Shown here: piece by piece, positions 40,500-49,934 of the stretch
Position numbering within the stretch: the first letter of the stretch is position 1
Layout of the letters: each line of letters opens with the position of its first letter
Assembly: GCF_057098645.1 (NCBI RefSeq)
Contig: NZ_CM169472.1
Length of the DNA: 64,000 bases
Direction: 5' to 3' (one strand)
Position numbers and translations under genes: made by a program
The notes under the pieces: model-generated
Databases searched by the model: none
Seen by the model: only the letters and a program-made list of their open reading frames with translations
What the model was told of the DNA's origin: nothing

Positions 40500-40789
40500 A
40501 TAAATCTCCATTTATCATTTATGTCGTAAATATGTAATCCATGCAAAATACGTCATTTAAAGCTGGCGTTATCATAATTGGGAAATTGCGACTTTAATAA
40601 GTGGAAGTGTGAGCGGAACGATCCATTTTATTAGGCATTTGTGCTGAAGAGGGAAAATTACGGCATATTTATTACTATCATCAATAATGTGACCTGACTT
40701 ATATTTTTATTATTTATATTACTTTCAGCTTTCACTTCGACAAGAAGTACGCACAATGATTAATCAGATGAATGATGCGGAGTGTAACC

Positions 40790-41497
40790 ATGAAACCCGT
40801 CGTGCTGGTGGTGGATGATGACACGGCTATCTGCGCACTGTTGCAGGACGTGTTAAGTGAACATGTCTTTACGGTTTCAGTCTGCCATACCGGACAGGAG
40901 GCCATATTGCGTATTGAGGGCGATCCTGACATTGCGCTGGTGGTGCTGGATATGATGCTACCCGATACCAACGGCCTGAGGGTATTGCAGCAAATCCAGA
41001 AACTGCGTCCGACATTGCCGGTGGTGATGTTGACCGGCATGGGCAGTGAGTCTGATGTGGTGGTCGGGCTGGAAATGGGCGCGGATGATTACATCTGCAA
41101 ACCGTTCACCCCGCGGGTGGTGGTCGCACGACTGAAAGCGGTGTTGCGACGGGTTGGTGCGCTGGCGGTTAATGACGAGAAAAGCGCCGGGCTGTCATTC
41201 AATGGCTGGTATCTCGATACCATGCGCTGCCAGTTGCACAATCCGCTTCAGCAACATGTCGAGTTAACTCAGGGCGAATATGGCTTGTTACTGGCACTGG
41301 CGCAAAACGCGCGTCGGGTATTGAGCCGCGAGCAGTTGCTGGCGTTCACCCACAGCGACAGCGTGGAGGTGTTTGATCGCACCATCGACGTATTAATCAT
41401 GCGCTTACGACGCAAAATCGAACTCAACCCGCATCAGCCGATGTTGATTAAAACTCTGCGCGGTCTGGGGTATGTCTTCGCTGCCGACGTGCATTAA
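40790..41497 (+). CDS. OmpR/PhoB-family response regulator (receiver plus winged-helix DNA-binding domain)
   Basis: MKPVVLVVDDD..., phospho-acceptor Asp in VVLDMMLPD, conserved Lys in YICKPF, C-terminal LIKTLRGLGYVF winged helix. Start trimmed to the ATG preceded by GGAG. Confidence 0.85.
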   Translation: MKPVVLVVDDDTAICALLQDVLSEHVFTVSVCHTGQEAILRIEGDPDIALVVLDMMLPDTNGLRVLQQIQKLRPTLPVVMLTGMGSESDVVVGLEMGADDYICKPFTPRVVVARLKAVLRRVGALAVNDEKSAGLSFNGWYLDTMRCQLHNPLQQHVELTQGEYGLLLALAQNARRVLSREQLLAFTHSDSVEVFDRTIDVLIMRLRRKIELNPHQPMLIKTLRGLGYVFAADVH

Positions 41498-42495
41498 TCC
41501 GACATTTCTGTTTGCAGCTCTTCCAGCGTTTTCGCCCCGTCGATGGCATTGGCGCATAACAGGCTTGCCCGCGCGCAGGCGTGTGCCAGTTTGATGCTCT
41601 CGGTAAGCGTCCAGCGTTCATGGCAGCCATATAAAAATCCGGCACAAAATGCATCGCCCGCGCCGACGCTGCCGATAATTTCCCGTTGTTCTAACTTTTG
41701 CGAAGGGATCCACACGCTGCCCTGTTCTGGGGTCTCTCCCCACGCCCCTTCCGGGCAGTGGATCACCACCCGCTGGCGCACGCCCGCATCTAACAGTTCA
41801 CGCGCGGCGGCAGCAATATGCGCGATATGCGGTTCGCCGTTGGGTAACCGAATTTCCAGCCCGCTAAACTCCCCGGCCTCCAGTTCGTTAATTACCAGAT
41901 AATCCAGATGGCGCAACGCGGGCAGCACCAGCGGCTGATAACGCGGATCGCCCTTACGGGAGACCAGGTCGAGTGAGGTTTCAAAGCCAGTATCACGCAT
42001 TTGCGCCAGCAGGCGTGCGCTACGGGTGCCGTAAACATCGTCCGGCATATCCAGGCTGTCGAGCAACAGTAAATAGCCGAGATGGAAAATCTTCATGGTG
42101 TTATCGAGCTGATCGAACGCCGGAAGATCCAAAAGTCTGTTTGCACCCGGCGAATGGAAAAACGTCCGCTGCCCGCTTGGGTCTGTCATCACCTGCGACA
42201 TCGACGTCGGGGCAAAGGTAGTGCGCTGCACATGCTGACGATTGACGTGATATTGCTCAAGCATCGCCATGATGTAATCGCCGTCGCTGTCCTGACCGAT
42301 TAGCCCAACCGCCTGTAACGGCAGCCCGGTGCGCATTTTCGCCAGCGTCAGCAGGACGTTAAGCGGCGCACCGCCGGTGGAGCGTTCGCTGTGGGTGATC
42401 TCCGCCAGCCAGCCGCGCTCTGGCCACTGGATAATCTGATGGACGTGGTCAACCAACATATTGCCTGCGGCGATAATCCCTTTACGCTCCATCAT
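41494..42495 (-). CDS. PfkB-family carbohydrate kinase
   Basis: 333 aa; ribokinase-fold signature near the C-terminus (GSVGAGDAFCAGFLYG) and N-terminal GG dipeptide region. Confidence 0.8.
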   Translation of the reverse strand: MMERKGIIAAGNMLVDHVHQIIQWPERGWLAEITHSERSTGGAPLNVLLTLAKMRTGLPLQAVGLIGQDSDGDYIMAMLEQYHVNRQHVQRTTFAPTSMSQVMTDPSGQRTFFHSPGANRLLDLPAFDQLDNTMKIFHLGYLLLLDSLDMPDDVYGTRSARLLAQMRDTGFETSLDLVSRKGDPRYQPLVLPALRHLDYLVINELEAGEFSGLEIRLPNGEPHIAHIAAAARELLDAGVRQRVVIHCPEGAWGETPEQGSVWIPSQKLEQREIIGSVGAGDAFCAGFLYGCHERWTLTESIKLAHACARASLLCANAIDGAKTLEELQTEMSD

Positions 42496-43352
42496 GCCTG
42501 CCCCGCACTGCCAAAAATACGCATCTGTTGTGCAACCGTATCGCTGATGGCGGCTTCCACTGCCAGCAGTAACTCGGCAAACTCGTCATACATCGGCTGA
42601 CGGTGCGCCATTCGGGCCTCAACGGCAGCCAGCGCCGCTTGCGACATGCCAGTGTAGAAATTGATTTTGTGGATACCCAGTTCGATGGCGCGGCGGAAAT
42701 CGGCATCGCTAATCCCTGAGCCGCCGTGTAATACCAGCGGGATAGCAGCCTGCTGGCGGATAGCGTCGAGGCGCGGGAAATCGAGTTTCGGTTCGCCGCG
42801 ATATTTGCCGTGTGCATTGCCAATCGCCACGGCCAACGCGTCAATGCCGGTACGGTCGACAAAATCACGCGCCAGTTGCGGATCGGTAAACAGGGATTCA
42901 TCGGCATGACCATAGAGCGCACCGCCTTCGTCGCTACCCACCGCGCCCAGTTCAGCTTCTACCGATACGCCAACGGCATGGCACATTTTCACCACTTCCC
43001 GCGTCTGGCGGACATTTTCTTCATACCCCAGCGTGGAGCCATCAAACATTACCGAGCTGAATCCCAGCCGCAACGCTTGCACCACCGATTCAAAATGCAG
43101 TCCGTGATCGAGATTTAACACCACCGGAATGGCATGACGCGCCGCTTCAAATTTCACTGTCTCGACCAGGGAATCCAGCGAGATATATTTAAAATGTACT
43201 TCGGCAATGTTGATAATAAAGGGCGAACGTTCTTGTCTGGCAGCAGCAAACAAGGCGCGTAAAAAGTGCGAGTCCAGCACATTAAACGCACCTAACGAAT
43301 AGTGATGTTCGCGGGCATGTGCCAGCCCTTCAGCGAGACAAATCAATGGCAT
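42492..43352 (-). CDS. Class II (metal-dependent) ketose-phosphate aldolase, FbaA/GatY/KbaY family
   Basis: 286 aa; N-terminal MPLI...LAHAREHHYSLGAFNV, LNLDHG and LHGGSG motifs typical of class II TIM-barrel aldolases. Confidence 0.8.
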   Translation of the reverse strand: MPLICLAEGLAHAREHHYSLGAFNVLDSHFLRALFAAARQERSPFIINIAEVHFKYISLDSLVETVKFEAARHAIPVVLNLDHGLHFESVVQALRLGFSSVMFDGSTLGYEENVRQTREVVKMCHAVGVSVEAELGAVGSDEGGALYGHADESLFTDPQLARDFVDRTGIDALAVAIGNAHGKYRGEPKLDFPRLDAIRQQAAIPLVLHGGSGISDADFRRAIELGIHKINFYTGMSQAALAAVEARMAHRQPMYDEFAELLLAVEAAISDTVAQQMRIFGSAGQA

Positions 43353-43366
43353 AACGTTATCCTTAT

Positions 43367-44050
43367 TCAGCGGAACTGGCGGTATTCGTTACACAATACC
43401 AACTGTGCAGGTTCGTCTTCGTCAATCAGGTTGTAGCGGTCCAGTGGCTGTAAAAAGTGGTTATCGTGGTCGTCGTCATTGACAGAAGAGACTTCGCCAA
43501 CCAGAACATCGCCAAAGCCGGTTTCCGCCCAAAAGCTGTGATACAGGCCGGGCGGCAGGCAGATACTTTCGCCGGGAGACAGGCGCAACTGAGTGCCTGC
43601 AGTATGTTTCTGGCGGCAGCCGTCTATCACCACCGTAATGTCACTATCAGCCGTTTGCTCGTTACTATCGGCATTCCACAGTTCAACAATTAAATTACCG
43701 CCGCCGCGATTGATAATGTCCTCACGCTTACGCCAGTGAAAATGCATTGGCGTGACCTGCGCATCGCGCACATGCATGATCTTCTCGGCGTAACATTTCA
43801 CATACGGCATTCCTTTTGCTGAGCCGTTACGTAGGGTAAACAGCGTCAGCCCGTGTGCTGCAAAGTTGTTGCGACCAAAAGCGGTAACATCCCAGCCGAG
43901 TTTAAGATCAAAAACCTCCTCCCACGCGGCGGTGTCGAGCTGCTGCCATTGAGCAGGCGAGAAACTGGCAAAGGGCGGCAGATGTACGTCATGTTGCGAA
44001 AAGAATTGCCGTGTATGGCCGAGAATGTCGTTTATAGCGGAGCGTTTCAT
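43367..44050 (-). CDS. Cupin-fold sugar isomerase, D-lyxose/D-mannose isomerase-like
   Basis: 227 aa; cupin metal-binding region (TPMHFHWRKREDIINRGGG ... PGLYHSFW); resembles the D-lyxose isomerase family as I recall it from a pathogenic E. coli enzyme. Confidence 0.65.
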   Translation of the reverse strand: MKRSAINDILGHTRQFFSQHDVHLPPFASFSPAQWQQLDTAAWEEVFDLKLGWDVTAFGRNNFAAHGLTLFTLRNGSAKGMPYVKCYAEKIMHVRDAQVTPMHFHWRKREDIINRGGGNLIVELWNADSNEQTADSDITVVIDGCRQKHTAGTQLRLSPGESICLPPGLYHSFWAETGFGDVLVGEVSSVNDDDHDNHFLQPLDRYNLIDEDEPAQLVLCNEYRQFR

Positions 44051-44104
44051 CGAAAGCGTTCTCCTTAGCGGTGACCGGGCAGCTGCGCCGCCCGGCGCGT
44101 GGAC

Positions 44105-45046
44105 TTATTTCACCGTCCAGCCTTTGTAATTGCCGACGTTGTTTTTATCGATCATCGTCACCGGGATCAGCACCGGCTCTTTCGGCGCAGGTTTGCCCTG
44201 CAAAATGTCGTAGCCAATTTCCACCGCTTTCGCTGCCATCACCTGGGGATCTTGCGCCGGAGTAGCGACAAACAACGAGTTCTCACGCTTGAGCGCCTCT
44301 TCGGCGTCCGGGCTTCCGTCCACACCGACAATAAAGAACTCGTTACGTTGCGCCTGTTTTGCTGCCAGATCGGCACCGATTGCGGTGGGATCGTTAATCG
44401 CAAATACGCCGTCGATCTTCGGATTTGCCGCCAGCAGTCCCGTCATTACCTCCAGCCCGCCTTCACGACTGCCTTTCGCGTTCTGGTTGTCAGAGAGCAC
44501 TTTGATGTCAGGATGGCGTTTAAATTCAGTCTGGCATCCTTCGACGCGGTTTTGCACGGCGGATACCGGCGGGCCGTTGATGATCACCACATTGCCTTTG
44601 CCTTTCAGGCGATCGGTGATGTATTTACAGGCCATTTCGCCCGCCTGGGTGTTATCGGAGGTGATGGTGGCATCAGCACCTTCTGCCGCTACGTCAACCG
44701 CGACGACTACGATCCCGGCATCTTTCGCCCGTTTCACCGCCGGGCCGATCCCTTTTGAATCGGCAGCGTTGAGGATAATCATATCGACGTTAGCGGCGAT
44801 AAAGTTGTCTATCTGCGACACCTGCTGACCCAGATCGTAGCCGCTGGAAACCAGCGTCACTTTGACGTTATCGCCTGCCAGTTTGCGTGCTTCCAGCTCC
44901 GCGCCTTTGGTGATCTGCACGAAGAACGGGTTCGCCAGATCGCCCACCGTTACGCCTATCGATTTCAGTTCTTTCGCTTGGGCGAACGGTGCTGCGGCCA
45001 GCAGCGCGCCTGCACAGAGCGCGGTCACTAAGGGCTTCAATCTCAT
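44105..45046 (-). CDS. Periplasmic sugar-binding protein of an ABC transporter (RbsB/AlsB-like)
   Basis: 313 aa, signal peptide ending AQA, type I periplasmic binding fold (GVTVGDLANPFF..., GIVVVAVD). Confidence 0.85.
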   Translation of the reverse strand: MRLKPLVTALCAGALLAAAPFAQAKELKSIGVTVGDLANPFFVQITKGAELEARKLAGDNVKVTLVSSGYDLGQQVSQIDNFIAANVDMIILNAADSKGIGPAVKRAKDAGIVVVAVDVAAEGADATITSDNTQAGEMACKYITDRLKGKGNVVIINGPPVSAVQNRVEGCQTEFKRHPDIKVLSDNQNAKGSREGGLEVMTGLLAANPKIDGVFAINDPTAIGADLAAKQAQRNEFFIVGVDGSPDAEEALKRENSLFVATPAQDPQVMAAKAVEIGYDILQGKPAPKEPVLIPVTMIDKNNVGNYKGWTVK

Positions 45047-45064
45047 GCTGTATTCCTCATGTGT

Positions 45065-46039
45065 TTATGCACTTTGATGGTGTCGGGTACGGTATTTGTC
45101 GATCAGCACCGCAATGATGATCACCGCCCCTTTGATCACCAGTTGCCAGAAGTAAGAGACGCCCATTAAGGTCATGCCATTGTTGAGCGTGGCGATAATT
45201 AGCGCGCCGACCAGCGTGCCGGTGATGGTGCCGATGCCGCCGACAAAACTGGTGCCGCCGAGGATCACCGCTGCAATGGCATCCAGTTCGTAACCCATGC
45301 CTAAGTTGCCGTTGGCGCTGTACAGCCGTGAGGCGCTCATAATCCCGCCAAGCCCAGAAAGCAGGCCGCTCATGCCATAAACAAACAGCAGCACCAGCCA
45401 GACCTTAATGCCGGTAAGACGCGCCGCCTGCATATTGCCGCCGACGGCGTAGATATGAACGCCAAGCGTGGTGCGGCGTAGAATAAACCAGCACACCACG
45501 ATCACCGCCAGCGCAATCACCACCAGCCATGGGACCGGCCCGAGATAGTTGTTGCCTATCCACTCGAAATTAATGTTGGAGTTGATAACCGTGGTGCCGT
45601 CCGCCAGCAGATACGCCGCCCCGCGCAGCGCCGTATAGGTGCCAAGCGTAACGATAAACGGTGGCAATCCGGCAAAGGCCACCAGCGCGCCGTTGAACAG
45701 CCCCAGCAGCAGGCCGAGCATCAGCGCTGCCGGGATCGACAGCATGGCGAACTCAGGGCTAAGGGAGACGACCATCGCCGCCACCGCTGTGGTGCCGAGG
45801 ATCGAACCCACGGAAAGATCGATCCCGCCGGTCAAAATGATGAAGGTCATCCCCGCGGCCAGAACAATGTTGATCGATGCCTGGCGGGTAATATTCAGCA
45901 GGTTGCTTTCGGTAAAAAAGTTTGGCGCGATAAAGCCAAATACCGCCACGATCAGAATCAAAATGGGCAAGATGCCGACCGTTTGCATCAGATCGCTCAT
46001 CAGCATTTTTTTGGCAGAGGTTTTTGCAGAGGTCGTCAT
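45065..46039 (-). CDS. ABC sugar transporter permease (RbsC-like)
   Basis: 324-aa polytopic membrane protein; 4-bp overlap with the upstream ATPase gene. Confidence 0.85.
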
Positions 46040-47556
46040 GAGGTTACCGCCTGGGAATGGGCGTCGTTGACGCCAGTCGCTAAGGTCATAATGTTTTCCT
46101 GGGTGATGTTTTTGCCGTTTAACTCACCGGCAATGCTGCCTTCGCGCATCACATAGACGCGATCGCTCATTCCCACTATCTCCGGCAGTTCGCTGGAGAT
46201 CATCAGGATCGCCACGCCCTTGCGCGCCATCTCGTTCATGATCCGGTAGATCTCACTTTTGGCGCCAACGTCCACGCCGCGGGTGGGTTCATCGAGCAGT
46301 AAAATGCGCGGGCCAATCGCCACCCAGCGGGAGATCAACAGTTTTTGCTGATTGCCGCCGGAAAGCCCGCCCGCGCGTACCTGGGCATGAGGCACGCGAA
46401 TGTTGAGCAACTTGATGGCGTCATCGGAAATGGTTTGCGCTTTTTTGCGATTGAGCATTCCCCAGCTGGCATCGCGCTCCAGGGTTGCCATGGTGATGTT
46501 TTCGGCTGCTGCCATTTCAAGGAATAAGCCTTGTTCTTTGCGGTTTTCGGTGAGAAAACCAATGCCAAGATCGATGGCTTCGCGCGGGGAGTGGATCACC
46601 ACCGGTTCACCATCGACTTCAATCATTCCGCCTGTCGCTTTCCGCACGCCGAAGATCAACTGCGCCAGTTCGGAACGTCCGGCTCCTACCAGCCCGGCGA
46701 GGCCGACAATTTCGCCGGAACGCACCAGCAGGCTACTCGGCTGGACTTTGCCACCGTCGGTCAGGTGGTGAACATTCAGGCGGGCTTTGCCGAGCGGGAT
46801 ATCGCGCTCTTTATTGAACAGATCGCTCAGTGGCCTGCCGACCATCATCCGCACCAGCTCCCCGGCATTGAGGTTATCGCGGGTCAGGCTGCCAACGTAT
46901 TGCCCGTCGCGCAGCACGCTGACGCGATCGGAAAGCTCATACACTTCCGCCATACGGTGGCTGATGTAGATAATCGCCATCCCTTCATCGCGCAGCCGCA
47001 TAATCAGTTCAAACAGACGGTGAGTTTCACGGGAGGAGAGGGCAGCGGTGGGTTCGTCCATCACCAGAATGCGGCTGTTGCGATGCAGCGCGCGGGCGAT
47101 TTCGACCTGCTGTTGCTCGGCAATGGTCAGCATCATGACTTTATCGCTGGCGTTAAACTGCGCGCCGAGGCGGTCGATCACTCTTTGCGCCTGCACCAGC
47201 ATCTCTTTACGCTGCACCAGCCCGCCGTGGGAAAGCTCGCTACCGAGAAAAATATTTTCTGCCACCGTCAAATTGGGTGCCAGCTGCATCTCCTGATAAA
47301 TCAGCGTAATACCGGCACTTAAGGCATCTTTTGGCGTGCGAATGTGAAAGGGCTTGCCGTCTATGAGGATCTCGCCGCTGGTGGCGGTATACGCCCCCGC
47401 CAGCACCTTCATCAGCGTGCTTTTTCCCGCGCCGTTTTCCCCCATCAGGGCATGGATCTCGCCAGGGTAGACCGTCAAATCCACCCCTTTGAGCGCATAA
47501 AATTTGCCGAAGGCTTTGGCAATATTGCGCATCTCCAGAACTGGCCTGCTGTTCAT
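46036..47556 (-). CDS. ABC sugar transporter ATPase, tandem nucleotide-binding domains (RbsA-like)
   Basis: Two Walker A sites ([20 protein letters not shown]) and two signature motifs (LSSRE-like, LSGGNQQK); start trimmed to [16 protein letters not shown] with GGAG RBS. Confidence 0.85.
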
Positions 47557-47669
47557 GGTGGACTCCTGCGAGGTTGTCGATATCAGCACTCCATCACAGG
47601 AAAGTAAATGCAAAATGTCAGAAGCCGTTCATATTTGTCATATTGCGATTTTTCTTCACGGAGCGTGAT

Positions 47670-49934
47670 ATGGCGCACCCCGGACGTCACTTTTTTGCCA
47701 GCGCGCGCGGGCGATTGCTGCTTTTGAATTTGCTGGTGGTGGCGGTGACGTTGATGGTCAGCGGCGTGGCGGTAATGGGCTTTCGTCATGCCAGCCAGAT
47801 GCAGGAGCTGGTGCAGCAGCAAACGGTGGATGATATGACCGGCAGCCTGAATCTGGCGCGCGACACGGCAAACGTGGCAACGGCGGCGGTGCGATTGTCG
47901 CAGGTGGTGGGAGCGCTGGAATATAAAGGCGAAGCCGAGCGGTTGCAGGAGACACAGCGGGCATTAAAAAGCTCGCTTGCACAACTGGCGAACGCGCCTT
48001 TAGCGCAGCAGGAAGCCGGGCTGGTGACGCGCATCATCACGCGTAGCAACGAACTGCAAACCAGCGTCGGCGGTATGCTGGAGCGCGGGCAAAGGCGGCA
48101 TCTGGAGCGCAACGCGCTGTTAAGTTCGCTGTATCAAAACTTAAGTTATCTGCGGCATCTGCAAAAAGTCACTCACGCGCAAGATGATATTTTGCTTAAC
48201 GAGATGAACCGACTAATTGTTGCCGCTATTGCCACCCCCGCGCCGCAGGCGATTATTCATCAACTGGTCGGGGTAATGTCTGCGTTGCCGACCCACAGCG
48301 ATACGCCATTGGTTAATACGTTACTCAATGATTTCAATGATGAAATGCGTAAACTCGCGCCGCTTTCTGCCGCTCTGGAGCAAAGCGATCTGGCAATCAG
48401 CTGGTATATGTTTCACATCAAAGCGCTGGTGGCGATCCTCAATGGCGACATCAACCGTTACGCCGAACAGGTGGCGACGCTCTCCGGTCAGCGTGTGGCG
48501 CAAAGTTACCAGGATTTGCGCTCCGGCGAGAGGGTGATCATGATTTTCGCCCTGTTAGCGGTGGTGATCACCGCGTTTGCCGGCTGGTATATCTATCGCA
48601 ACCTCGGCACTAACCTGACGGCGATTTCCCGCGCCATGAGCCGCCTGGCGCACGGCGAAGCGGACGTCACTTTTCCGGCGTTACAGCGGCGTGATGAGTT
48701 GGGTGAACTGGCGCGCGCCTTTAACGTTTTTGCCCGCAATACCGAGTCACTCGAACGAACCTCACGGCTGCTAAAAGAGAAGACCACGCAGATGGAGATT
48801 GCCCAAACTGAGCGGCAGGGGTTGGAAGAGGCGCTATTACACAGCCAGAAACTGAAAGCGGTCGGGCAACTGACGGGCGGGCTGGCCCATGATTTTAATA
48901 ATCTGCTGGCGGTGATTATTGGCAGCCTGGAGCTGGTGAATCCGGACTCGCCAGACGCGCCGCGAATACAGCGGGCGCTGCAAGCTGCCGAACGTGGGGC
49001 GCTACTGACACAACGACTGCTGGCGTTTTCCCGCAAGCAGTCCTTACATCCGCAAGCCGTTGAACTGAAAACATTGCTGGAAGAGTTAAGCGAATTAATG
49101 CGCCACTCCTTACCGGCAACGCTGGCGCTGGAGATTGAAGCGCAGTCTCCGGCGTGGCCCGCGTGGATTGACATCAGCCAACTGGAAAATGCCATCATCA
49201 ACCTGGTGATGAACGCCCGTGACGCGATGGAAGGGCAGACGGGAATCATCAAAATTCGTACCTGGAATCAGCGCGTTACTCGCAGCAGTGGGCAGCGTCA
49301 GGACATGGTGGCACTGGAGGTCATCGATCATGGCAGCGGTATGTCGCAGGCGGTGAAAAGCCAGGTATTTGAGCCATTCTTTACCACCAAACAGACGGGC
49401 AGCGGCAGCGGGCTGGGGTTGTCGATGGTCTATGGTTTTGTGCGCCAGTCCGGTGGGCGCGTTGAAATTGAAAGCGCGCCGGGGCAGGGGACAACGGTCA
49501 GATTACAGCTTCCCCGCGCGCTGACGGCGGCGAAAAACCTATCGCCAGCGGCAGTAGAACAGGCTTCTGTCAGCGGCGATAAACTGGTGTTAGTGCTGGA
49601 AGATGAAGCCGCGGTGCGCCAGACCATCTGCGAACAGTTGCACCTGCTGGGCTATTTGACGCTGGAAGCAAGCAGCGGCGAACAGGCGCTGGATCTGCTG
49701 GCGGCATCAGCAGAAATCGATATTTTTATCAGCGATTTAATGCTCCCCGGCGGCATGAGCGGCGCAGAAGTGGTCAATGCGGCCCGCAAACTTTACCCGC
49801 ACCTGACGCTGCTACTCATCAGCGGTCAGGATTTACGCCCCAGCCATAACCCCGCGCTGCCAGACGTGGCGCTGTTGCGCAAACCCTTTACCCGTGCGCA
49901 GTTGGCGCAGGCGCTGGGGCAAATTGAGGGATGA
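47670..49934 (+). CDS. Hybrid sensor histidine kinase (periplasmic sensor, HAMP, HisKA, HATPase, C-terminal receiver)
   Basis: Start trimmed to ATG 47670 (MAHPGRHFF...); two TM segments flanking a roughly 270-aa helical periplasmic domain; H-box GGLAHDFNNLL; ATP lid DHGSGM, GSGLGLS; receiver with Asp in IFISDLMLPG. No HPt domain. Confidence 0.85.
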   Translation: MAHPGRHFFASARGRLLLLNLLVVAVTLMVSGVAVMGFRHASQMQELVQQQTVDDMTGSLNLARDTANVATAAVRLSQVVGALEYKGEAERLQETQRALKSSLAQLANAPLAQQEAGLVTRIITRSNELQTSVGGMLERGQRRHLERNALLSSLYQNLSYLRHLQKVTHAQDDILLNEMNRLIVAAIATPAPQAIIHQLVGVMSALPTHSDTPLVNTLLNDFNDEMRKLAPLSAALEQSDLAISWYMFHIKALVAILNGDINRYAEQVATLSGQRVAQSYQDLRSGERVIMIFALLAVVITAFAGWYIYRNLGTNLTAISRAMSRLAHGEADVTFPALQRRDELGELARAFNVFARNTESLERTSRLLKEKTTQMEIAQTERQGLEEALLHSQKLKAVGQLTGGLAHDFNNLLAVIIGSLELVNPDSPDAPRIQRALQAAERGALLTQRLLAFSRKQSLHPQAVELKTLLEELSELMRHSLPATLALEIEAQSPAWPAWIDISQLENAIINLVMNARDAMEGQTGIIKIRTWNQRVTRSSGQRQDMVALEVIDHGSGMSQAVKSQVFEPFFTTKQTGSGSGLGLSMVYGFVRQSGGRVEIESAPGQGTTVRLQLPRALTAAKNLSPAAVEQASVSGDKLVLVLEDEAAVRQTICEQLHLLGYLTLEASSGEQALDLLAASAEIDIFISDLMLPGGMSGAEVVNAARKLYPHLTLLLISGQDLRPSHNPALPDVALLRKPFTRAQLAQALGQIEG

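Follow-up and report, generated by a model that had tools for sequence, protein, structure and literature searches.

A conserved, operon-anchored candidate operator for RbfR between rbfS and a divergent sugar-transport operon

Z5692 and Z5684, named RbfS and RbfR, have so far been described only as a riboflavin-responsive virulence switch in enterohaemorrhagic Escherichia coli (EHEC) O157:H7 and O145:H28, a two-component system that activates ler via a 21-bp footprint, TCTCACATAATTTATATCATT (PMC9860305), and their locus raises the question of what this system evolved to regulate. We examined this locus in a window of 64,000 nt (NCBI RefSeq assembly GCF_057098645.1, contig NZ_CM169472.1; all positions refer to this window), in which a 113-bp spacer at 47557-47669, GGTGGACTCCTGCGAGGTTGTCGATATCAGCACTCCATCACAGGAAAGTAAATGCAAAATGTCAGAAGCCGTTCATATTTGTCATATTGCGATTTTTCTTCACGGAGCGTGAT, separates the start of the minus-strand ATPase gene of a sugar-transport operon (47556) from that of the plus-strand kinase gene rbfS (47670). 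The locus around the spacer is OI-167 of EHEC O157:H7 (genes z5684-z5692), and both flanking gene starts match the RefSeq annotation of the identical E. coli O145 locus. We found that the spacer contains a strongly conserved block, 47604-47645, which is probably the cis-regulatory core of this divergent promoter region, and mainly an operator of the module's own regulator, RbfR. Tandem repeats that serve an OmpR/PhoB-family regulator in a divergent region are an ordinary kind of operator, and one undescribed for RbfR.

A first-pass annotation of the window had placed the spacer correctly between the two genes and read it as a divergent control region, a reading that the results below support. 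As a candidate operator it had proposed two TGTCA repeats about two helical turns apart, together with a third, related site, TTGTCGATA, near 47574. The coordinates of the two pentamers, 47616-47620 and 47636-47640 (20 bp start to start), are correct, and the arrangement TGTCA-N15-TGTCA was found once in the window, with 0.06 expected. However, some 5-mer repeated at 19-22 bp turns up in 23% of sequences made by dinucleotide shuffling of the spacer, and 35% of 113-bp tiles across the window contain one as well, so that the TGTCA pair taken alone is not beyond chance; it is conservation that lifts it above chance.

We assembled orthologous loci by using the kinase sensor domain as query with one genome per species, which yielded 41 loci, and compared the spacers of 39 loci (33 distinct spacer sequences) from nine genera: Escherichia, Citrobacter, Enterobacter, Leclercia, Lelliottia, Silvania, Huaxiibacter, Phytobacter, and Pseudenterobacter. 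Comparison among E. coli genomes was uninformative, the spacer being at least 99% identical in all 410 that carry it. The divergent ATPase/kinase order and the entire module were syntenic in the nine genera, mostly beside phnP, and both pentamers were present in all 39 orthologous intergenic regions, in the arrangement TGTCA-N5-YGTTCA-N4-TGTCA (39/39), whose three elements we refer to as half-sites a, b, and c. The proposal thus withstood the refutation test set in the first-pass annotation, absence of the repeats from other genomes with the module. Among the 33 distinct sequences, 31 of the 40 columns of 47605-47644 were invariant, including ATGTCAG (47615-47621) and a fully invariant 16-bp run, GTTCATATTTGTCATA, at 47627-47642. 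As controls, we used the first ~120 codons of the flanking genes in the same genomes, in which 73-86% of first and second codon positions and 7-9% of third positions were invariant, as were 0 of 39 and 3 of 45 four-fold sites. This comparison indicates that the block is under purifying selection. The third site of the first-pass annotation (TTGTCGATA, located at 47574-47582) did not hold up, since CGATATC alone is kept, and the TTGT part varies (48-91% conservation over columns 47574-47577). This CGATATC opens a second conserved block, 47578-47599, most of which is 94-100% conserved in Enterobacteriaceae, and of which only the CAC(A/G) part persists in deeper lineages.

Relatives of the RbfS sensor domain are few (87 clusters at 50% identity). 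Contigs carrying full-length sensor relatives revealed the same module in five further lineages, namely Serratia (57% sensor-domain identity to RbfS), a Yokenella-like lineage (40%), Pasteurella multocida (26%), a Rappaport-like lineage (25%), and Conservatibacter flavescens (24%). We anchored these deep spacers on TTGTCAT and counted E. coli as one of six lineages. TTGTCAT(A/C)WT was present in all six, and (Y/C)(G/A)TTCATAW directly preceded TTGTCAT in five; GTTCATAW followed by TTGTCAT was kept in Serratia, P. multocida, C. flavescens, and the Rappaport-like lineage, and the Yokenella-like lineage keeps TTGTCAT. The first TGTCA was kept in Serratia and was replaced in the Pasteurellaceae, Yokenella-like, and Rappaport-like lineages (ATGTTGA, ATTTCGT, ATGTTTT). 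The loss of this pentamer alongside retention of GTTCATAW+TTGTCAT pointed to the middle and right-hand sites as the conserved core. In the Yokenella-like transporter-kinase spacer, half-site b is missing and an inverted pair, CTGTTCATGATGATGAACCG, lies downstream; a separate spacer of that lineage, between the ROK kinase gene and the regulator gene (L052/L053, 1272-1413), holds GTTCATTGTTTGTCTTG, which may be a second tandem site whose halves are set one base further apart.

In all six lineages, 79-83 nt separate TTGTCAT from the start codon of the ATPase gene, and the core begins 70-72 nt from that codon in 40/40 Enterobacteriaceae loci. In contrast, insertions of REP-like (repetitive extragenic palindrome-like) elements or foreign DNA have left anything from 27 to 1175 nt between the block and the kinase start, and in P. 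multocida a flavohaemoglobin gene stands between block and kinase gene while the block remains beside the operon. The fixed distance on one side and the varying distance on the other show that the block is locked to the operon side, not to the kinase side. The REP-like palindromes (CCCTCTCCC...GGGAGAGGG..GGGTGAGGG) are present singly or in tandem arrays of up to about five in Enterobacter, Leclercia, Lelliottia, and their relatives (loci L013-L038, e.g., L037), and would fall in the leader of the kinase mRNA if the predicted promoter is real. The 1262-bp spacer of Enterobacter sp. CC120223-11, read by eye, contains an apparent 5′ remnant of the kinase gene, a stretch of foreign, AT-rich DNA (~1 kb) that carries a small open reading frame (ORF), and then the intact kinase gene; here, too, the block adjoins the ATPase gene. 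The P. multocida flavohaemoglobin-type gene (L050, 6708-7862) encodes Globin, FAD_binding_6, and NAD_binding_1 domains and lies on the kinase strand. A degenerate copy of the core upstream of the P. multocida kinase gene (12/18 match, p 0.12) was rejected.

Closer inspection of the block altered the geometry that had been proposed for it. Two pentamers about two helical turns apart were not supported as the functional unit, since half-site b lies midway between them and TGT/YGT starts at 47616, 47626, and 47636 give a period of 10 bp in 39/39 loci, the one-turn tandem spacing customary for sites of OmpR/PhoB-family regulators. Half-site b closely resembles the tor box, CTGTTCATAT, which we read from the torR-torC spacer of K-12 and confirmed in the literature (PMC9239176). 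Its motif, CYGTTCATAT, occurs nowhere else in the window, and among the 39 loci it reads CCGTTCATAT in 25, CTGTTCATAT, a perfect tor box, in 11, and TCGTTCATAT in 3. The block also shares two 11-mers with the torC regulatory region, AAGCCGTTCAT (box3 and flank) and GTTCATATTTG (box4 and flank), and a longest shared word of such length was reached in 0.15% of shuffles. Half-sites a and c (TGTCAGAAGC and TTGTCATATT) match the tor-box consensus at 4 of 10 positions without gaps, so that the spacer holds only one canonical tor box. What survives of the first-pass candidate operator is thus a strongly constrained cis-regulatory block, most probably the local operator of RbfR, without the 20-bp geometry and the third site.

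The first-pass annotation had expected a regulator of the OmpR family, which was borne out: rbfR encodes Response_reg and Trans_reg_C domains, and this OmpR/PhoB-type protein is the only transcription factor encoded in the module in every lineage whose contigs reach the regulator. The motif accompanies the module into differing lineages and chromosomal contexts, which favours the module's own regulator as the binder, and we infer that RbfR is that protein. Its recognition helix and wing, FDRT(I/V)DVLIMRLR(R/K)KIE.NP...T.RG.GY, were identical in 31 distinct enterobacterial orthologues and essentially identical in the Serratia, Yokenella-like, and Pasteurellaceae proteins; the linker varies, and the Pasteurellaceae proteins are only 53% identical overall. 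TorR has DVLIRRLR at the position of the recognition helix. The NCBIfam scores of RbfR (OmpR 191, VirG 180, PhoB 178, and TorR 163 bits) all fell below the cut-offs, that of TorR being 275. Judged from these comparisons, "tor-box-like" is a resemblance of DNA and not a family assignment, and RbfR is not a TorR orthologue. We likewise rejected an identification of the module's binding protein as TorT (23% identity, E 0.02), a resemblance at family level only.

A strict scan of the spacer for sigma-70 promoters and terminators gave no hits. A relaxed promoter scan returned candidates on both strands, at the same aligned place in every genus examined. For the minus-strand candidate, which would serve the operon, the columns are 97-100% conserved and the predicted start lies near 47586, which would place half-sites b and c at about -41 to -58. 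The -10 hexamer of the plus-strand candidate, which would serve rbfS, is CATAAT in Pasteurellaceae. The TGTCA pentamers coincide with hexamers of these candidate promoters, and part of their conservation may therefore reflect a promoter and not an operator.

From these features, we propose the following mechanism. The operator would consist of tandem direct repeats one helical turn apart (TGTCAG at 47616, YGTTCAT at 47626, and TGTCAT at 47636), with GTTCATAW+TTGTCAT (half-sites b and c) as the ancient, indispensable core and half-site a as an accessory site in Enterobacteriaceae. Phosphorylated RbfR, arranged head to tail as a dimer or oligomer, would occupy a position ~40-60 bp upstream from the predicted operon start and recruit RNA polymerase to the weak promoter of the ABC-transporter/lyxose-isomerase operon. 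The same sites cover the spacer and the extended -10, TGTCATATT, of the candidate rbfS promoter, so that binding would modulate, and probably damp, kinase expression. TorR offers a parallel, with a single set of boxes serving both activation of torCAD and repression of torR.

Several observations weigh against this assignment to RbfR or against parts of the mechanism. Although the TGT/YGT starts keep a 10-bp period, the deeply conserved repeat TCATAWT has a period of 9 bp. The half-sites point away from the operon, and tor and pho boxes point the opposite way relative to the promoters that they activate. The candidate -10 of the operon, TGTGAT, is without the key A at position 2, and RbfR, at 36% identity to TorR, is not specifically TorR-like. 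The ler footprint, when slid along the spacer, reached at best an ungapped 13/21 match (minus strand, 47622-47602; p ~0.14 among shuffled 21-mers), and its spacing differs from that of the spacer sites. No tor-like box was found in 40512-40789, upstream of rbfR, and no conserved box in orthologous rbfR upstream regions. Nor did a matching site turn up upstream of the separate catabolic operon in Pasteurellaceae, where the best matches in the ROK-regulator spacers were not significant (p of 0.62 and 0.99). The published account of RbfS/RbfR is silent on the six-gene operon between rbfR and rbfS and on any site in the spacer, and its 3-fold increase of rbfS on signal fits poorly with simple repression of rbfS (PMC9860305). 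Our literature search found no later publication on RbfR binding sites. Upstream of rbfR, ATGTGAC (~40688-40694, ~100 nt upstream of the gene) is the sole strongly conserved motif across genera in an otherwise divergent region, and may be a half-site for CRP or another factor.

The alternative that survives best, which we nevertheless consider unlikely, is that the block is conserved mainly as two back-to-back sigma-70 promoters (ATGTCA-18-TGTCATAKT on the plus strand for the kinase gene and CTGACA-17-TGTGAT on the minus strand for the operon), with the pentamers as their hexamers and the regulator binding elsewhere or not at all. Both TGTCA pentamers do fall on candidate hexamers, both candidates keep their aligned position in every genus examined, and the universally conserved TTGTCATAAT/ATT/AGT, equivalent to TGn plus a CATAAT-like hexamer, makes a good extended -10 in all deep lineages. 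However, the strict consensus scan finds neither promoter, and GTTCATAT (47627-47634), which on this reading is only the spacer between hexamers, shows no variation and is kept down to Pasteurella, a constancy that promoters normally do not need. The fixed distance is to the ATPase start and not to the kinase gene, which would be unexpected if only a kinase promoter were conserved, and the minus-strand -35 is degenerate in the deep lineages whereas the pair of boxes is not. Conservation as promoters and service as an RbfR operator are, in any case, not mutually exclusive.

We regard as quite improbable that the block is the operator of another regulator, such as TorR, PhoB, CRP, or some other global factor. 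Such a reading draws on the perfect tor box in 11 of 39 loci and the 9/10 match in E. coli; on TTGTCATAT, which resembles the pho half-site, CTGTCATA, with TGTCA as the pho-box core and with the phn operon adjacent; and on a TGTGA motif on the minus strand at 47594-47598. Against all of these, the motif travels with the module into the differing contexts of Pasteurella, Conservatibacter, and Serratia. Moreover, tor regulation uses four boxes upstream of torC. For PhoB and CRP, the geometry is weak: a pho box comprises two CTGTCAT heptads with an 11-bp period, unlike pentamers 20 bp apart with GTTCAT between them at 10 bp, and a CRP site would be centred near 47590, downstream of any possible operon start, with a second half-site that reads poorly. 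That the pentamers are a chance repeat without function, the conservation stemming from a coding extension or an RNA element, is hardly credible: such 5-mer pairs are indeed frequent in shuffles and tiles, the first TGTCA is lost in deep lineages, and both strands of the spacer are crossed by ORFs with a TTG start (47574-49934 and 46036-47613), but these extensions are ruled out by invariance that exceeds that of first and second codon positions and has no 3-base periodicity, by indels and REP-like insertions in orthologues right beside the block, which are incompatible with coding, and by annotated starts with conserved Shine-Dalgarno sequences; and the spacer gave no Rfam match at E <= 1 and no unusual fold (z-score -0.33), which favours function at the level of DNA.

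The features discussed are collected in Table 1, together with the genes of the module, which is flanked by yjcS on one side and by yjdP/phnP on the other.

Table 1. Elements of the spacer and genes of the module, in window coordinates.
Feature	Position	Strand	Basis or remark
Conserved non-coding block GTAAATGCAAAATGTCAGAAGCCGTTCATATTTGTCATATTG	47604-47645		Candidate operator with overlapping promoter elements
Half-site a TGTCAGAAGC	47616-47625	+	TGTCAG invariant in 39/39 enterobacterial loci and in Serratia
Half-site b CCGTTCATAT, tor-box-like decamer	47625-47634	+	9/10 to CTGTTCATAT
Half-site c TTGTCATATT	47635-47644	+	TTGTCAT in 39/39 loci and all deep lineages; also reads as extended -10 (TGn + CATATT)
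Candidate rbfS promoter	-35 ATGTCA 47615-47620; 18-nt spacer; extended -10 TGTCATATT 47636-47644	+	Relaxed scan 8/12, plus extended TG
Candidate operon promoter	-35 CTGACA 47621->47616; 17-nt spacer; -10 TGTGAT 47598->47593	-	Relaxed scan 9/12
Second conserved block CGATATC.GCA.T.CATCACAG	47578-47599		Operon side; candidate -10 and leader start
Shine-Dalgarno AGGAG of ATPase gene	47563-47567	-	CTCCT invariant in all orthologues; 7 nt before annotated start
Presumed target operon, six genes	41494-47556	-	Synteny in nine genera, Serratia, and Pasteurellaceae
ABC ATPase	46036-47556	-	Sugar ABC transporter, first gene of operon; RefSeq and Pfam
Permease	45065-46039	-	RefSeq annotation and Pfam
Sugar-binding protein, RbsB-type	44105-45046	-	RefSeq annotation and Pfam
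D-lyxose/D-mannose isomerase (Z5688)	43367-44050	-	RefSeq annotation and Pfam
Class II aldolase	42492-43352	-	RefSeq annotation and Pfam
PfkB kinase	41494-42495	-	RefSeq annotation and Pfam
rbfS (z5692), hybrid sensor kinase	47670-49934	+	HAMP, HisKA, HATPase, REC; without Hpt
rbfR (z5684), OmpR/PhoB-family response regulator	40790-41497	+	Response_reg and Trans_reg_C; far end of operon

Some further observations concern the products of these genes. RbfS is a HisKA-HATPase-REC hybrid kinase, and Pfam identified neither an Hpt domain in it nor a separate Hpt gene in the module. RbfS has 754 residues; its relatives of 860-873 residues in the Serratia, Yokenella-like, and Rappaport-like lineages carry an extra PAS_7 domain, which RbfS lacks. 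The binding protein and permease share 94-97% amino acid identity across genera versus 73-83% for the sensor kinase and regulator, a contrast that is unusually uneven within one operon. In a strand-specific transcriptome, the isomerase gene Z5688 was almost silent in lysogeny broth and was raised at 15 degrees C (90 reads vs 2; PMC4048457), a temperature that is a possible inducing condition for the operon.

OI-167 has been described as laterally acquired by O157:H7 and O145:H28 (PMC9860305). We observed the module in 421 of 5426 complete E. coli genomes; E. coli from pigs and goats, cryptic Escherichia clades, E. ruysiae, and E. marmotae carry it too, and its position beside phnP is the same in Citrobacter, Enterobacter, Leclercia, Lelliottia, and further genera. 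That the island is syntenic across at least nine genera of enterobacteria is relevant to whether it was acquired as a pathogenicity determinant; loss of an ancient locus from most E. coli seems no less likely than its recent acquisition. In Enterobacter sp. RIT418 and Phytobacter massiliensis, no kinase, aldolase, or isomerase gene was detected in the stretch examined; both genomes keep the conserved block together with the genes for the ABC transporter and for the two signalling proteins, sensor kinase and regulator.

With regard to what RbfS/RbfR evolved to regulate, the position-locked candidate operator offers a concrete handle and, with its three half-sites, a defined probe; it is also a likely high-affinity reference with which to compare the weak-looking ler site. 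We tentatively raise the possibility that the primary role of RbfS/RbfR is dedicated control of an old sugar-utilisation module, with the spacer operator as the system's primary, high-affinity target and a sugar as its native signal. If this were so, the binding protein of the operon itself would present that sugar to the TorS-like sensor, and control of ler would be a secondary, low-affinity capture.

Four known systems invite comparison with the spacer. The ler site shares with it the same regulator, and its footprint holds two T(C/A)TCA pentamers resembling TGTCA, but these are 14 bp apart and lack a GTTCAT box, and the ler site lies in acquired virulence DNA whereas the spacer site stands beside the regulator's own module and is conserved across orders. 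In VirA/VirG-ChvE and LuxQ/LuxP, the kinase senses its ligand by way of a periplasmic binding protein. The spacer's module likewise pairs a hybrid kinase gene with a neighbouring gene for an RbsB-type sugar-binding protein, and the VirA-like and VirG models were among the better sub-threshold NCBIfam matches. By analogy with these systems, binding protein and sugar would signal to the kinase, the kinase to the regulator, and the regulator to the transporter operon. The vir box is unrelated in sequence to the spacer sites, and the published signal of RbfS is riboflavin (PMC9860305).

The pho box resembles the spacer sites in having a TGTCA(T) core ahead of a tract rich in A and T, half-sites arranged head to tail at roughly one turn, a location beside the -35 of a weak promoter (for the spacer sites, a predicted one), and a winged-helix regulator with the conserved RTxDVxIxRLR recognition helix; the spacer differs from it in its periods of 10 bp (TGT starts) or 9 bp (TCATAWT), in its mixed set of TGTCA and GTTCA sites, and in its presumed regulator, RbfR. 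The tor operator differs in that the spacer has one canonical box, whose neighbours are of the TGTCA type and one base shorter, with boxes that point away from the presumed operon; the divergent gene here is the kinase and not the regulator, and the target is sugar transport and catabolism rather than respiration of trimethylamine N-oxide. Nevertheless, CYGTTCATAT matches the tor box at 9-10 of 10 positions, the 10-bp period is like that of box1-box2, and the flanks of the block resemble box3 (AAGCCGTTCAT) and box4 with its downstream pseudo-box (GTTCATATTTG[C]TCAT). Each of the two lies where a signalling gene and the (here presumed) target operon diverge, and RbfS has a TorS-like periplasmic sensor with a TorT/RbsB-type binding protein encoded nearby (PMC9860305).

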